Positions 26,390 through 38,042 of a stretch of 64,000 nt of DNA are shown piece after piece. Within the stretch, counting starts at the first letter, position 1, and every line of letters begins with the position of its first letter. The stretch is taken from the NCBI GenBank assembly GCA_017435865.1, contig JAFSEF010000053.1, positions 141,188-205,187 on the forward strand, in the 5' to 3' direction. The notes beneath the pieces were generated by a model. The model did no database searches, was not told the origin of the DNA, and was given only the letters and a program-made list of their open reading frames with translations. The DNA is from Clostridia bacterium (GTDB lineage: Bacteria > Bacillota > Clostridia > Oscillospirales > Acutalibacteraceae). Both the position numbers and the translations under genes were made by a program.

Positions 26390-28654
26390 ATGAGAAATAT
26401 TAAAGTTATCAATGATAATTGGTTGTTTTCAAAAACTGCCAAGCAGGTTCCTGCAAGCATACCGACGGATTGGGAAGCAAAGAATCTTCCCTATACCTGG
26501 AATGAAAAAGACGGCCAGGACGGCGGTAATGACTATTACAGAGGCACTTGCTATTTTGCAAAAACTCTCGCAAAATCCGATTTCCCGGAAGGCGAAGTTT
26601 TTTATCTGCAGTTTGACGGTGTCAACTCCTCGAGTGAAGTTTTCTTCAACGGCAAAAGCCTTGTAAAACACGACGGCGGTTATTCCACCTTCCGTGCAAA
26701 AGTCGAAGATATCAAAGATGAAAATCTGTTGGTTGTAAAGGTTGACAACGCTTATACAGACCGTGTGTATCCGCAGATGGCCGACTTCACCTTCTATGGC
26801 GGCATCTATCGTGATGTCAGTATCATTGCTGTCGGTGAAAAACACTTTGACCTTGATTACTACGGTGCACCCGGTATGCAGGTAACGCCCGAAATCAAGG
26901 GTAAGGATGCTGTTGTCAAAGCAAAAGCGTTCTGTGACGGTAAGGTCCGTTTTGATATTATCGACAATGGGGAAGTCATCCTCACTGCATTTGCAGAAGA
27001 TGATGAACATCCCGAAGCTCAACTGAAAATCGAAAATGTGCATCTGTGGCACGGCACGATCGATCCCTATCTCTACACCATGAAAGCAACCTTGCTTGAC
27101 GGTGACAAAGAAGTTGATTGCATTTCCACCCGTTTCGGCTGCCGTTCTTTCAAAGTTGATCCGCAGAAGGGATTTATTCTCAACGGCAAGGAATATCCGC
27201 TTCGCGGTGTATCCCGTCATCAGGACAGACCCGGCATCGGTAACGCACTTCTTCCCGAGCATCACAGGGAAGATATGGAACTTATCAAAGAGGTCGGTGC
27301 AAATACCATCCGCCTTGCACATTATCAGCACTCGCAGGTGTTCTATGACCTTTGCGACGAATACGGTATGGTTATCTGGGCAGAAATTCCCTATATTTCA
27401 AAGCACATGCCCAACGGTTATGACAACACCAAGTCGCAGATGAAAGAGCTTGTTGCACAGAACTACAACCATGCATCCATCTGTTTCTGGGGGCTTTCCA
27501 ATGAAATCTCCATCGGTGGTGCCGCGGATGAAAGCCTTATTAAGAACCATAAAATGCTCAATGACCTTTGCCATGATATGGACAAGACCCGTCTGACCAC
27601 CGTTGCAGTCGTATCCGTCTGCGGTATTGACGAAGAATATGTCCACATTTCCGACATTGTGTCTTATAACCACTATTTCGGTTGGTACGGCGGTACGACC
27701 GAAATGAACGGCCCGTGGTTTGATAATTTCCATGCAAAATACCCCAACCGTCCCATCGGTCTGAGTGAATACGGTTGCGAAGCACTTAACTGGCACACCT
27801 CCAAGCCCATGCAGGGGGACTACACGGAAGAATATCAGGCTTATTATCACGAAGAACTCATCAAACAGATTGCAGACAGACCCTATATCTGGGCAACCCA
27901 TGTCTGGAATATGTTTGACTTTGCTGCAGACGCAAGAAGCGAAGGCGGCGAAGACGGCATGAACCACAAGGGTCTTGTCACTTTCGACAGAAAGTACAAG
28001 AAGGACTCTTTCTACGCCTACAAAGCATGGCTCAATCCCGAACCCATGGTACACATCTGCTCCAAGCGTTACATTGACCGTGTGGAAGATGTTACCAAAG
28101 TCACTGTTTATTCTAACTGTGACGAAGTGGAACTGTTTGCAAACGGCGTAAGTGTCGGCAAGCAGAAAATGGGTAAGAATCCGTTCTTCTATTTCGACGT
28201 GAAGAATGTCGGTGAAACAACGCTGAAGGCTGTTGCAGGTGAGCTTTCCGACGAAAGCACCATCCGCAAGGTTGATAAACCGAACGAGGATTATATTCTC
28301 AAGGAAGAAGGCGATGTCATCAACTGGTTTGACATTACCACTCCTGACGGCTACCTGTCCATCAACGACACCATCGGTGAAATCGCAGCTACCGCAAAGG
28401 GTAAAATGGCTCTCGTTTCCGTTGTTCTGATGCTCGTAAAGAAAATGAAGAACAAAAAGAAAAACGGCGGCAGCGGAGGCGAAGTCGCAGGCTTTGACAT
28501 CAGCGGTGTCAAGATCAGCAAGAGTATGATCAGCGGTCTGTGGCAGATGCTTTCCGGATTTTCCATCAAGCGTGCAAGCTCCATGGCAAAGGGACTCTTC
28601 ACCCGTGAAGATCTGCTTTCCATCAATGCAAAGCTTAATAAAATCAAAAAATAA
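26390..28654 (+). CDS. Glycoside hydrolase family 2 (beta-galactosidase/beta-glucuronidase-like) with a non-catalytic C-terminal tail
   Basis: GH2 sugar-binding region FYGGIYRDV, acid/base WGLSNE, nucleophile LSEYG. About 90 aa of hydrophobic/basic C-terminal extension. Confidence 0.88.
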   Translation: MRNIKVINDNWLFSKTAKQVPASIPTDWEAKNLPYTWNEKDGQDGGNDYYRGTCYFAKTLAKSDFPEGEVFYLQFDGVNSSSEVFFNGKSLVKHDGGYSTFRAKVEDIKDENLLVVKVDNAYTDRVYPQMADFTFYGGIYRDVSIIAVGEKHFDLDYYGAPGMQVTPEIKGKDAVVKAKAFCDGKVRFDIIDNGEVILTAFAEDDEHPEAQLKIENVHLWHGTIDPYLYTMKATLLDGDKEVDCISTRFGCRSFKVDPQKGFILNGKEYPLRGVSRHQDRPGIGNALLPEHHREDMELIKEVGANTIRLAHYQHSQVFYDLCDEYGMVIWAEIPYISKHMPNGYDNTKSQMKELVAQNYNHASICFWGLSNEISIGGAADESLIKNHKMLNDLCHDMDKTRLTTVAVVSVCGIDEEYVHISDIVSYNHYFGWYGGTTEMNGPWFDNFHAKYPNRPIGLSEYGCEALNWHTSKPMQGDYTEEYQAYYHEELIKQIADRPYIWATHVWNMFDFAADARSEGGEDGMNHKGLVTFDRKYKKDSFYAYKAWLNPEPMVHICSKRYIDRVEDVTKVTVYSNCDEVELFANGVSVGKQKMGKNPFFYFDVKNVGETTLKAVAGELSDESTIRKVDKPNEDYILKEEGDVINWFDITTPDGYLSINDTIGEIAATAKGKMALVSVVLMLVKKMKNKKKNGGSGGEVAGFDISGVKISKSMISGLWQMLSGFSIKRASSMAKGLFTREDLLSINAKLNKIKK

Positions 28655-33449: not shown

Positions 33450-33456
33450 TTATAAA

Positions 33457-33483
33457 AGCCTCCTGTCGGTTCGGCAGGAGGCT
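33457..33483. terminator. Bidirectional terminator between the Gfo/Idh/MocA gene and the minus-strand GH operon
   Basis: AGCCTCCTG / CAGGAGGCT stem flanked by A-run and T-run. Confidence 0.7.
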
Positions 33484-33488
33484 TGCTT

Positions 33489-34733
33489 TTATCTTTTTGC
33501 GTCTTTTTCTTTGAATGATGCGAATGCTTTTTGCACTGCATAATATGACGGCTTCGGTCTGCCGTCATTGTCCACCAATCCCCAACGGGTCTCAGTCGGG
33601 CAATCAGCTTGCCCGCAGTAGGCGCAATGCGGAAAATCGGTGTAGCAGAACACGATTGCACCGCAAATGAAATCCAGGTTATAAAATCTGTCAAGAAGTT
33701 TTGTGTAAAACTTTGCCTGTCCTTCAGGGGTGTGCGGATATCCGGGAATCACCGTGATGCCGGGAAGCTCTTTATAAAGATGATTTGTCATATCTCCGTC
33801 AAACAGAAAGTCGGCATACCTGTTCTCATCGTGCTCGCAGACATTTTTGACATGATCTCCGAAATGCTTCGGAAGATTTTCCACAAATTGTGTTATGTTT
33901 TCTCTTGCAGCTTTTTCGCTGTCAAAGCCGTAGCTCTGCAGAATTGCTTTCTTTTCTGCCTTTGATTTCGGCTTGCCTGCACTGATGTAGCCGAATTCCT
34001 GCATCAGAATCGGTTTCTTTGTGAAGCTCCAAAGGTATCTTGCCATCACATCGAACAAAAACATAAATCCGGGAAGTTTGAAGAAGCAGCCGAGATACAT
34101 GTCAAGTCCCACATAATCGCAGTATTTGTGATAGGGTTTTAACCCTGCGTGCAGGTCTGCCTGCGGTCCTGCGGAATTGTAGCCGATGATGATATTTCCG
34201 CGGAAATCATACATTGCTTGCAGCTGCATTCCGATAAATTCAATGCCCTCTTTCATGTTCAGCGGTACGGTAAATCGCGGCATGCCGATTTCATTTGCCA
34301 CCTGAATGCCGTCGATCACGCCCTGCAAGTCCTCTACGGTAAAGCGAGCTGCCTTGCAGATGAGTGCCTTGCCATCCTCTGTGCGCGGATCAATGCCGAG
34401 GGCAATGCATTGTGACGGGATGGCGGTCATGACCATGATTTTAAGGCCGTTTGCCTTGATGGTTCTGAATTCCTCCTTGCGCCTGGTGTATTCCTCGCGC
34501 ACGTTGCCATCCTTGTCAAACGGAAACGGCACATCGGTGCGGATCCATTCTATATTAGCAGCTTTGACCTGCTCGTGGTCTTCACTCACATGACAGGCTC
34601 CACGGATAAATCCGAGTCTTTGGCGGATCGCTTTGGTTTCATCGGAATATGTTTTTGTAAAGTAGGATTTTATAATATTGGTCGGTATGTATTTTATGCT
34701 GTTGACGATCTGATTTTTCATAAATTCGTCCAT
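33489..34733 (-). CDS. Putative clan GH-A (TIM-barrel) glycoside hydrolase, unassigned family, paralog 1, with C-terminal Cys cluster
   Basis: VANEIGMP (candidate acid/base NE), ILMQEFGY (candidate nucleophile), terminal WGLVDNDGRPKPSYYA, and CAYCGQADCPTE cysteine cluster. Confidence 0.55.
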   Translation of the reverse strand: MDEFMKNQIVNSIKYIPTNIIKSYFTKTYSDETKAIRQRLGFIRGACHVSEDHEQVKAANIEWIRTDVPFPFDKDGNVREEYTRRKEEFRTIKANGLKIMVMTAIPSQCIALGIDPRTEDGKALICKAARFTVEDLQGVIDGIQVANEIGMPRFTVPLNMKEGIEFIGMQLQAMYDFRGNIIIGYNSAGPQADLHAGLKPYHKYCDYVGLDMYLGCFFKLPGFMFLFDVMARYLWSFTKKPILMQEFGYISAGKPKSKAEKKAILQSYGFDSEKAARENITQFVENLPKHFGDHVKNVCEHDENRYADFLFDGDMTNHLYKELPGITVIPGYPHTPEGQAKFYTKLLDRFYNLDFICGAIVFCYTDFPHCAYCGQADCPTETRWGLVDNDGRPKPSYYAVQKAFASFKEKDAKR

Positions 34734-34736
34734 GCT

Positions 34737-35981
34737 TTATTCCTCGCTATTCTTGACTTTACCGTAGATTTCCTTAACTGCATAGTATGCAGGCTTCGGC
34801 TTGCCTTTTTGGTCAACCAATCCCCAACGGGTTTCTGTCGGACAATCCGCCTGTCCGCAGTAGCCGCATTTTTCGTAGTCGGAATAGCAATAAATGAAGC
34901 ATCCGCACACAAAATCAAGGTCATAAAACAATTGAATCACTTTTTTGAAGAACTTTGCCTGCCCCTCGGGGGTGTGTGCAATGCCGGGGATGACGGTTAT
35001 GCGGGGCAACTCCTTGTAAAGATGATTTTTCATGTCGCCGTTGAATAAAAGCGTTGCGTATTTGCTTGCATCATTGCCGCAGGCACGGCGCACGTGCCCT
35101 GCAAAATGAGGAGAAAGACTGTTTACAAAGGCTTCCATATCCTTTTTTGCATCCTCTTCACTTTCAAAGCCGTAGCTCTGCAGAATTTGCTTCTTTTCCT
35201 GTTTTGTCTTCGGTTTTCCGTCCCCGATGTAGCCAAATTCCTGCATCAGGATCGGCTTTCTTGTGAAAGCCCACAGAAAACGCACCATAACAGAGAACAT
35301 GAACACAAAGCCCGGCATATTGAAAAAGCAGCCGAGATACATATCAAGCCCAACATAATCGCAATATTGGTGATACTTTTTCATAGGCAGATGCAGATCA
35401 AGCTGCGGTCCGGCTGAATTGTAGCCGATGATTGCATTGCCCTTTAACGGATGCATTTCTTCCAGCTGCACGCCGATGAATTTCACGGCCTCGTCCATAG
35501 TCAGCGGCAATGTAAAATGCGGCATGCCCATTTCATTTGCCACCTGAAAGCCACCCACGCAATCTTTTAAGTCATTCGCAACAAACCGTGCAGTTTCGCG
35601 AAGCTTTTGCTCGCCCTCGGGCGTGCGCACATCCGCTCCTAACTTTATGCATTCGGCAGGGTAGTATGTGATTGCCATGACCTTGAAGCCGTTTTCGGTA
35701 AAGCGGATACATTCTTGCTTGCGGTCAAGATAAATCTGTCTTACACTTCCGTTTTCGTCAAACGGATAGGGAATATCCAGTCGCACCCAACTGATGTTGG
35801 CTTCGTGCAGTTGTTTATAGTTTTCAGGTGCATGGCAGACCCCACGCACAAAACCTTTTTTTCGCAGTGCTTTCGTTTCGTCGGAGCTTTTTGCAATGAA
35901 AAACGATTTTACAATGTTGATCGGAATATATTTGATGCTGTTGATGATCTGATTTTTCAGAAAATCATCCACTTGAATCAT
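34737..35981 (-). CDS. Putative clan GH-A (TIM-barrel) glycoside hydrolase, unassigned family, paralog 2
   Basis: Collinear with paralog 1 (VANEMGMP, ILMQEFGY, CGYCGQADCPTETRWGLVD). The ATG at 35981 lies 2 nt (35984-35985) downstream of the GH43 stop codon (35986-35988); the track start at 36026 overlaps GH43. Confidence 0.55.
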   Translation of the reverse strand: MIQVDDFLKNQIINSIKYIPINIVKSFFIAKSSDETKALRKKGFVRGVCHAPENYKQLHEANISWVRLDIPYPFDENGSVRQIYLDRKQECIRFTENGFKVMAITYYPAECIKLGADVRTPEGEQKLRETARFVANDLKDCVGGFQVANEMGMPHFTLPLTMDEAVKFIGVQLEEMHPLKGNAIIGYNSAGPQLDLHLPMKKYHQYCDYVGLDMYLGCFFNMPGFVFMFSVMVRFLWAFTRKPILMQEFGYIGDGKPKTKQEKKQILQSYGFESEEDAKKDMEAFVNSLSPHFAGHVRRACGNDASKYATLLFNGDMKNHLYKELPRITVIPGIAHTPEGQAKFFKKVIQLFYDLDFVCGCFIYCYSDYEKCGYCGQADCPTETRWGLVDQKGKPKPAYYAVKEIYGKVKNSEE

Positions 35982-35985
35982 CCTT

Positions 35986-36933
35986 TCAGATGTGATCTTT
36001 GTATCTTTCAGCCGTGATGATGCCATCCTTTACATGCAGCTTGCAGATTCTTGCATTTCTTGCATCAAATGCACTTGAATCAAGTCCGTCTTCGTAATCT
36101 CTTGCGTGGTAAACAGCATACCACTGTCCGTCAAATTTGATCATCGAATGATGTCCCGTTCCTTCTTCGAATTCATTGGCAGCAAGAACAGGTGCGTAGG
36201 TATTCTCATCGGGATATTTTTCAAATTTAATTTTGGTTAAATCTGTTTCGTCTGTTTTGGCTCTTGCGTAGCCGATGTAATAGGTCGGTTGCTCATAGCA
36301 GTTGCCCGAATACATCACATAATGCCAGTCACCCTCTCTGAAATAGAAAGCACCTTCAATGGTGTGCCAGTGCTCGCCCTTTTTGTAGCGGTCGCGTCTG
36401 AAAATATCCTCATCGAGTGTCGGCACGACTACGGGAACGGGATTGCCGGCAGGTGTTTCGGGATCAAGCATGCGGTCTACGACAATATATGTGCCGGGAC
36501 GTTCACAGTCAAAGCGGTTGGTGGAATAAAACAAAAACAGTCCGTCTTCATTTTTCACAATATGCGAGTCAATGGAAAACGGATGCAGTATCTGCTTTGC
36601 ATCTGTGAACGGACCCAGTGGATTATCCGCTTTTGCTACATGCATGGTCTGTCTGTGTCCGCCCTTATCAGGAGTGTCATTGTAAAACTCAAAGGAAGTG
36701 TACATATAAAACGTGCCGTCAAGCTCAATGACGGACGGTGCCCAGTATTCACTGTGTCCGTTATGGGAAAAGACCTTGCCGTGCAGCTTCCATCCGTCGA
36801 ACAGGTTGTCCGATTCATAGGCATAAATGCCGTCGTGTCCTGTTGTGTAAATATAGAATCTGCCGTTGCTTTCAAGAATGTAAGGGTCTGCTTGTCCGAT
36901 GTAGTTTTCTTTGTTGATTGCAAGAAGATGCAT
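35986..36933 (-). CDS. Glycoside hydrolase family 43
   Basis: ADPYILESNGRFYIYTTG N-terminal beta-propeller motif, WAPSVIE, and GHHSMIKFDGQWYAVYHA. Confidence 0.82.
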   Translation of the reverse strand: MHLLAINKENYIGQADPYILESNGRFYIYTTGHDGIYAYESDNLFDGWKLHGKVFSHNGHSEYWAPSVIELDGTFYMYTSFEFYNDTPDKGGHRQTMHVAKADNPLGPFTDAKQILHPFSIDSHIVKNEDGLFLFYSTNRFDCERPGTYIVVDRMLDPETPAGNPVPVVVPTLDEDIFRRDRYKKGEHWHTIEGAFYFREGDWHYVMYSGNCYEQPTYYIGYARAKTDETDLTKIKFEKYPDENTYAPVLAANEFEEGTGHHSMIKFDGQWYAVYHARDYEDGLDSSAFDARNARICKLHVKDGIITAERYKDHI

Positions 36934-37051: not shown

Positions 37052-37079
37052 AACACTGACAAAGGGGGAGTGATTGAAA

Positions 37080-38042
37080 ATGAGCTTCAAAGAATATTTG
37101 AATCAGGCACGTCTTGCACCCGAAGAGGGAGACGTCATCGAAATTCTTGATGTTCGCAGCCGTGTGTTCAGCAATGCACTTGTGAATGCACAACGTGAGA
37201 TTCCTGCAGTTTGCTGCAATTACAATGCCGATATCACCGCATTGTGGGAAGAATATGAAAACCTGAAAAAGAACTGCGGCTATGCATTGCCGTTCAACAC
37301 CCTGATGATCAGAATTCTTGTTGAAGGACTCAAGGCTGCACCCCGTCTGAATGCACATATCGAATACAAACATCTTTCTACCTCAGGCAGGCTTATTATC
37401 AAAAAACATATTGATGTTACCGTACCTGTTTGCTCGGATAAGGGCGAAACCATTCAGGTCAAGGCACGTCATCTTGAGGAAAAATCACTTGCCGAAATCG
37501 CTGCCCAACTTGAAGAACTCAAATATCGATTAAGCAAAACCAACACCAAACACGCCTATTTCAATGTTGCTGCAAAGCGTATGGCAGGCTATGCAGCCAA
37601 AGGCAAAGTCGGCACCACTTTTGCACAGTTTGTAAGTGCCTACTTCGGTAAAAACAAAATTGCAAAGTTTTCAAAGCTCTTCAAAAAGAAAAAGCATTCT
37701 ACCGGGACCCCTAAACCGAAGTACGAAGGATTACGTCCTGACGATTTTACCGAAGGGACGGTCTGCTTTACGAACTGGGGCACTTTGTATGAAAACTTAA
37801 ATGTGAACATAACCTATATTTCTCCGATGTATCCGTCTGTTTTTCTTCTTGCTGCCGGCAGAGTAAAGGATGAAAGCTTTGCGTTTAAAAATGAACAAGG
37901 ACAAGTGGATATCGGCACCAGGAAAGTGCTTCCGCTGACACTGATTTTTGATCACAAAGTAGGGGGAGCTGCTGATATCATGCCGTTTATAAAACGATTG
38001 GATGAGATTTTTGCAGCACCGCAGGAAATAAGAAATTGGTAA
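37080..38042 (+). CDS. 2-oxoacid dehydrogenase E2-type acyltransferase catalytic-domain protein, stand-alone (no lipoyl or E1/E3-binding domains)
   Basis: C-terminal LTLIFDHKVGGAADIMPFIKRL corresponds to the E2/CAT-fold DHRxxDG active-site block. GGGGGAG RBS. Confidence 0.6.
   Translation: MSFKEYLNQARLAPEEGDVIEILDVRSRVFSNALVNAQREIPAVCCNYNADITALWEEYENLKKNCGYALPFNTLMIRILVEGLKAAPRLNAHIEYKHLSTSGRLIIKKHIDVTVPVCSDKGETIQVKARHLEEKSLAEIAAQLEELKYRLSKTNTKHAYFNVAAKRMAGYAAKGKVGTTFAQFVSAYFGKNKIAKFSKLFKKKKHSTGTPKPKYEGLRPDDFTEGTVCFTNWGTLYENLNVNITYISPMYPSVFLLAAGRVKDESFAFKNEQGQVDIGTRKVLPLTLIFDHKVGGAADIMPFIKRLDEIFAAPQEIRNW

Follow-up and report, generated by a model that had tools for sequence, protein, structure and literature searches.

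A stretch of 64,000 nucleotides (nt) from a Clostridia bacterium (assembly GCA_017435865.1, contig JAFSEF010000053.1, positions 141,188-205,187), hereafter the window, carries on its minus strand three tightly packed genes in the order GH43, paralog B and paralog A, the first of them encoding a member of glycoside hydrolase (GH) family 43. The products of the other two genes, which are the subject of this work, are probably glycoside hydrolases of a small clan GH-A family bearing a cysteine motif close to the presumed active site. The features of the locus, in positions of the window, are the following.

35986..36933, minus strand: GH43 glycosidase gene, first of the three-gene unit, 315 amino acids (aa), without signal peptide; PF04616 match at 3.7e-31
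34737..35981, minus strand: paralog B of the unnamed, putative clan GH-A family, 414 aa from ATG 35981; B clade
34737-36026, minus strand: longest form of the paralog B open reading frame (ORF) in the ORF list
35532-35543, minus strand: VANE motif of paralog B
35229-35243, minus strand: QEFGY motif of paralog B
34821-34868, minus strand: CxxCx4C block of paralog B
33489..34733, minus strand: paralog A (P0001, 414 aa); A clade
34290-34301, minus strand: paralog A, catalytic segment containing N147-E148
33987-34001, minus strand: paralog A, catalytic segment containing E246
33774-33785, minus strand: paralog A, loop segment containing H318
33714-33734, minus strand: paralog A, loop segment HTPEGQA
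33579-33626, minus strand: paralog A, Cys knuckle C370/C373/C378-P-x-E381-x-x-W384
33456..33484, no strand: 13-base-pair G+C-rich hairpin separating paralog A from a convergent GFO/IDH/MocA gene

The gap of 3 nt between B and A, reported in an initial annotation made from the sequence alone, is confirmed by the ORF coordinates. The lengths of 414 and 415 aa given there are right for A, but B also has 414 aa when read from ATG 35981, the figure of 415 including the stop codon. In the same way, the GH43 gene said to stand directly before B is recognized by Pfam, although 4 nt (AAGG), and not 2, separate its stop codon from ATG 35981. The true start of B is probably GTG 35972, which opens a protein of 411 aa (MDDFLKNQ...); it is preferred to both ATG 35981 and ATG 36026 because the resulting N-terminus fits the family consensus MDxFLKDQ and a ribosome-binding site, GAAAGGA, lies 8 nt upstream. 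The best match of the GH43 protein among the PDB sequences is 4qqs, a GH43 enzyme of 315 aa (6e-24), which we take to be an alpha-L-arabinofuranosidase. Gene order and spacing suggest that GH43, B and A are co-translated as one translationally coupled unit, and the hairpin at 33456-33484 is likely a bidirectional terminator ending it.

The two paralogs, described at first as identical by eye at well over half of their positions, share 241 of 411 residues in a BLASTP alignment (59% identity, 77% positives, one gap). In a tree of 88 members they fall into separate clades of nine rows, each with support of 100 and each composed of the window's copy and its orthologues in one and the same set of eight other genomes; the duplication is therefore older than these species. 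Mean identity reaches 82% inside the A clade and 79% inside the B clade, against 61% between the two, and of 37 clade-fixed differences between A and B, 24 are located in the loops of the barrel's catalytic face. A and B represent an old duplication retained under selection, probably with differing subsite preferences, and two related substrates are plausible for them.

Neither protein has any match in Pfam or NCBIfam, and 32 diverse members of the family, scanned singly against the same libraries, gave only sub-threshold matches spread over clan GH-A models (the GH128 core, GH113, GH53, GH10, GH2_C and GH5); the best one to the GH53 model PF07745 reached E 0.0013 and 18.2 bits, the cut-off being 24 bits. 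One distant member matches Pfam GH2_C at 4e-6. Against the PDB sequences, A and B searched as single sequences hit the C-terminal part of a GH2 beta-glucuronidase barrel insignificantly, while the profile search gave a weak GH2 match (E 0.002), the sole PDB signal at the sequence level. Among 5.8 billion proteins, a word-indexed search returned 784 relatives, all the named ones (from NCBI, JGI and nr) being labelled "hypothetical protein" and none of the 784 carrying a precomputed Pfam domain, and an exhaustive search of 1.84 billion representatives with a hidden Markov model collected 236 clusters at E<=1e-3: the family is small. A literature search for a described family with such a motif or taxon found none. 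The original suggestion of a possibly unclassified GH family is therefore supported, there being no confident match to an existing family in Pfam, NCBIfam or the PDB sequences; these are the collections against which "unclassified" is to be read, and CAZy and dbCAN, which lie outside this scope, are the main residual risk.

From a structural perspective, the AlphaFold2 model of paralog A, computed from an alignment of 44 sequences, reaches a mean predicted local distance difference test score (pLDDT) of 92.8 and a predicted template modelling score (pTM) of 0.90. It is a single-domain (beta/alpha)8 barrel without a beta-sandwich, with strands at 43-47, 63-67, 98-102, 142-145, 182-188, 207-214, 242-249 and 356-361, helices between them and an additional N-terminal helix. 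The strand-7 loop is lengthened, between strand 7 and helix 7, by a mostly helical insertion of about 85 residues (roughly 250-335); the short members of the family, of about 345 aa, lack roughly residues 262-330. N147-E148 comes right after strand 4 and E246 lies within strand 7, which is the layout of clan GH-A. Foldseek against the PDB gave 701 hits at E<=1e-3, and the 50 best of them, from which the enzyme classes were taken, all belong to clan GH-A (probability 1.00, 10-17% identity, template modelling (TM) score of about 0.5). The best is the GH53 enzyme 7osk (3e-11), GH53 being represented also by 1ur0, with GH5, GH2, GH39, GH10, GH1, GH158 and GH164 close behind.

The same affinity appears in a comparison of profiles by hhalign, in which the family alignment and a GH53 alignment built from the genome of a relative matched with 97.4% probability (E 9.6e-12, 312 columns). 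This comparison pairs QIxNE with VQLGNE (acid/base) and KPVxxxEFGY with KKVMVAETSY (nucleophile segment), as well as HTPEGQA with TVQGQA and the C-terminal GLVD..G.PKP with ALFD..GHP; PDB entry 2gft, in the Foldseek list, is the E263A nucleophile mutant of BlGal. The motifs first pointed out by eye (VANE, QEFGY, the block of five cysteines and WGLVD..G.PKP.YYA) are located in both genes at the expected places, and the assignment of the two glutamates to the GH-A catalytic positions is sustained by their location just after strand 4 and on strand 7 of the model and by their pairing with the acid/base and nucleophile of GH53. Furthermore, among 127 members, non-redundant at 80% identity, N147 is conserved in 127, E148 in 126 and E246 in 125, together with R65 (124), N186 (125), D211 (125), Y213 (124), E381 (119) and W384 (118).

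GH53 is the nearest classified family, and the relationship is at the level of the clan and not of the family. With the GH53 endo-beta-1,4-galactanases IaGal of Ignisphaera aggregans (7osk) and BlGal of Bacillus licheniformis (1ur0), A and B share the catalytic glutamate pair and the motif T-x-(E/Q)-G-Q-A before helix 7; moreover, loops 7 and 8 are also tied in GH53, by a disulphide or by Ca2+. They differ in that identity is about 17%, no match of A, B or the 32 diverse members reaches the PF07745 cut-off, and GH53 lacks the helical extension of the strand-7 loop. In addition, loop 8 is a Cys knuckle in the A/B family and an aromatic or Ca2+ loop in GH53, and the cytoplasmic location of A and B contrasts with the secretion typical of GH53 enzymes. 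The likeness to the TIM-barrel domain of GH2 (beta-glucuronidase/galacturonidase, 6ncy and 6ncw) extends over helix 7, strand 8 and the C-terminus in the profile match mentioned above, the GH2 nucleophile segment KPVIVTEFG pairing with KPILMQEFG of the family. Unlike GH2 enzymes, A and B are single-domain proteins devoid of the N-terminal sugar-binding and Ig-like domains and of any GH2 Pfam match; a true GH2 gene, with all the GH2 domains present, is found elsewhere in the window (26390-28654). A further comparison concerns the GH42 beta-galactosidases, such as Thermus A4, which are cytoplasmic, combine a clan GH-A barrel with a structural Cys4 zinc and finish imported galacto-oligosaccharides. 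Their zinc site lies in another barrel region than the Cys knuckle of A and B, and no sequence relationship of the family to GH42 was detected.

A and B could be members of a CAZy family that is already established but lacks both a Pfam model and a solved structure, either a recent clan GH-A family or a very divergent GH53 subgroup. The remote homology to GH53 recovered by hhalign is real, and new clan GH-A families that lack a structure are known, GH173 being one of them (PMC8810776). This explanation is, however, quite unlikely, given the identity to GH53, the failure of A and B to match any Pfam or NCBIfam model, the sub-threshold scores of the diverse members and the uniform label of the named relatives in NCBI, JGI and nr. 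GH173 itself, which occurs in polysaccharide utilization loci of Bacteroidetes and has a GH30-like two-domain architecture with an appended beta-sandwich (PMC8810776), was set aside on a comparison by description only, since A and B come from a family of single-domain Clostridia proteins without a beta-sandwich. The fold and the mechanism are classical; the libraries queried contain no description of the sequence family, of its helical insertion or of the Cys3-His/Cys motif.

The cluster of five cysteines reported in both paralogs is indeed present in A and B, but only three of its residues are family-wide: C370 is kept in 124 of the 127 members and C373 and C378 in 125 each, the remainder being alignment gaps, whereas C357 (47/127) and C363 (81/127) mark subfamilies; C216, C205 and C299 are likewise not family-wide. 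At position 318, 101 members have His and 20 have Cys, so that 121 of 127 have one or the other; His goes with the helical insertion, and the short members have Cys. Such an interchange at an otherwise fixed position is the behaviour of a metal ligand and is typical of zinc sites. The strand-7 loop carries residue 318; the strand-8 loop carries the three cysteines, directly ahead of E381 and W384, two residues whose counterparts in clan GH-A enzymes line the -1 subsite.

In all the solved GH53 galactanases except BtGal, loops 7 and 8 are stabilized, the fungal enzymes using a disulphide and the bacterial and archaeal ones a Ca2+ site (PMC8447715). On account of this precedent, of the three invariant cysteines, of the His/Cys alternation at position 318 and of the position of these residues in the loops, we infer that a structural Zn(Cys3-His/Cys) clamp most likely joins loops 7 and 8 beside the active site. 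If this is true, it is a third way, beside disulphide and calcium, to staple these loops in GH53-like barrels.

An iron-sulphur (Fe-S) cluster, or a regulatory redox or disulphide switch, would be another use for the conserved cysteines, and one that agrees with a strictly anaerobic host and with the cytoplasmic location of A and B; besides, C-x2-C-x4-C-P, with its trailing Cys-Pro, is faintly ferredoxin-like, and one member gives a very weak Fer4_20 match (E 0.42). Nevertheless, this spacing is not a known Fe-S signature, and an N-terminal signal or anchor is predicted in 26 of the 127 members, 24 of which align through the Cys block and keep all three cysteines (24/24); Sec-exported Fe-S proteins being unusual, zinc is favoured. 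Moreover, the exchange at position 318 points to zinc, and a disulphide between two of three invariant cysteines would leave one unpaired. On balance, Fe-S or redox chemistry in place of zinc is very unlikely.

As regards the genomic context, the gene upstream of the tandem pair in eight related loci is a GH43 gene in five and an M15 (VanX-type) dipeptidase gene in three, so that GH43 is present in six of nine loci when the window is included. In the latter three (L010-L012), a 241-aa Peptidase_M15 of the D-Ala-D-Ala dipeptidase type occupies the GH43 slot and overlaps the start of paralog B; here one gene cleanly replaces another at a point of translational coupling. Across 81 loci of the family, the commonest order is zinc-ribbon membrane protein, Big_2 anchored protein, GPH symporter and family gene. 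The symporter is the commonest upstream neighbour (position -1 in 27 of 81), and the three genes stand together at -3, -2 and -1 in about 25 of the 81 loci. A beta-lactamase-fold protein is encoded at +1 in 12 loci and AP_endonuc_2, of the sugar-isomerase fold, at +2 in 13, while GH43, GH123, GH29, GH38 and GH130 are the recurrent glycosidase neighbours. Scanned against NCBIfam, the neighbouring symporter, oxidoreductases and proteins of the beta-lactamase and isomerase folds yielded nothing beyond generic matches below the cut-off, from which no substrate can be derived.

These neighbourhoods bear on the role of the family. Retaining GH-A enzymes are capable of transglycosylation, and neighbours such as the beta-lactamase-fold, AP_endonuc_2 and GFO/IDH/MocA genes are unlike those of a plain polysaccharide locus; A and B might accordingly use the GH-A scaffold without being hydrolases in vivo, as transglycosylases or in acting on a non-carbohydrate glycoconjugate imported by the GPH symporter. 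The chance of this is slim, for the full catalytic set is invariant and classical GH genes are frequent neighbours. A role in peptidoglycan recycling, to which the M15 dipeptidase and beta-lactamase-fold neighbours could point, is a minor possibility, classical GH genes for plant and host glycans being equally frequent as neighbours.

Considering sequence conservation and the predicted model, it is fairly probable that A and B work in the cytoplasm as retaining glycoside hydrolases, and that they represent a small, unnamed clan GH-A family nearest GH53, are equipped with a zinc clamp and are encoded in a coupled GH43-B-A operon. By analogy with clan GH-A chemistry, hydrolysis would proceed by double displacement, with E148 as acid/base and E246 as nucleophile; R65, N186, D211 and Y213 are the other invariant residues of the barrel. 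E381 and W384, in the strand-8 loop, would form part of the -1 sugar pocket, while the knuckle C370-x2-C373-x4-C378-P and residue 318 would bind a structural Zn2+, clamp loops 7 and 8 and thereby position E381 and W384. GH43, B and A would act on imported oligosaccharides. The leading guess for the substrate, suggested by the kinship with GH53 and by the GH43 gene of the unit, is beta-galactoside or arabinogalactan-type oligosaccharides; it is held with low confidence and is considerably more apt to be wrong than right.

Several observations weigh against parts of this picture. GH53 is only nominally the nearest family, as GH5, GH2 and GH10 trail it in Foldseek E-value by no more than about 1.5 orders of magnitude and TM is about 0.5 throughout. 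The convergence of C370, C373, C378 and H318 on a single site is suggested by conservation and loop topology, and H334 (119/127), E381 or D366 are alternative candidates to residue 318 for the fourth ligand. As for the substrate, the guess is weakened by the presence of the M15 dipeptidase, and not of GH43, in the two closest relatives of the window, and other clades adjoin beta-lactamase-fold, sugar-isomerase-fold and GFO/IDH/MocA genes, with no pointer to galactan. A bolder version, in which a new family at the CAZy level cleaves a linkage outside those of known enzymes in a glycoside imported by the conserved symporter cassette, and in which the Cys3-His/Cys site, adjacent to the -1 pocket, is functionally required as a metal-dependent or redox-gated clamp and is more than a passive staple, is unlikely.

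The genome of the window, a metagenome-assembled genome (MAG) of 3.1 Mb, contains three copies of the gene, the third of which lies apart from A and B on another contig. One to three copies are found in 28 of 36 genomes of this herbivore-gut genus, and any copy at all in only 2 of 24 other families of the order. A canonical GH53 gene (PF07745) is absent in all 19 genomes of the genus searched (G000-G018). The family comes mostly from Acutalibacteraceae MAGs of herbivore guts. Records that carry a name are MAGs assigned to Acutalibacteraceae, Oscillospiraceae or Clostridia, sampled from goat, sheep, horse, water-deer and rumen, and a few distant members have other origins, for example Chloroflexota. 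In some of the distant members the protein is joined to an esterase, a metallophosphatase, a dockerin or cell-surface repeats.

The family is currently invisible to annotation, all the copies being labelled "hypothetical protein" and usually standing beside a sugar symporter. The characterization of one member would probably establish a new GH family and would add a glycan-processing step to the models of fibre or glycoconjugate breakdown in the rumen and hindgut. With a conventional fold and chemistry, and new GH families being found regularly, the gain would be incremental in enzymology but of practical use in annotation.

The third copy (contig C88, L009 8004-14653) lies in the same symporter cassette, followed by a GFO/IDH/MocA oxidoreductase gene; here, the cassette encodes a zinc-ribbon membrane protein with multiple transmembrane segments and no Pfam match, and a membrane-anchored Big_2 protein with a CxxC...CxxC ribbon. 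Another clade (L026 4912-6528 and 12 other loci) is always found downstream of a gene for a secreted 385-aa protein without Pfam match; a divergently transcribed gene for a cytoplasmic GH123-like protein adjoins, and GH29 fucosidase genes are frequent nearby. These GH123-like and GH29 neighbours hint at glycoconjugate-type substrates for this clade.

Finally, a gene for a stand-alone E2-type (2-oxoacid_dh) acyltransferase is a conserved neighbour of the unit, lying on the plus strand in the window (37074-38042) and found also at the related loci L001 6963-7922 and L002 4704-5663. In the relatives it is divergent and directly upstream of the GH43/M15-B-A unit, six loci having it at -2 on the opposite strand, and it may be functionally part of the GH43-B-A unit.

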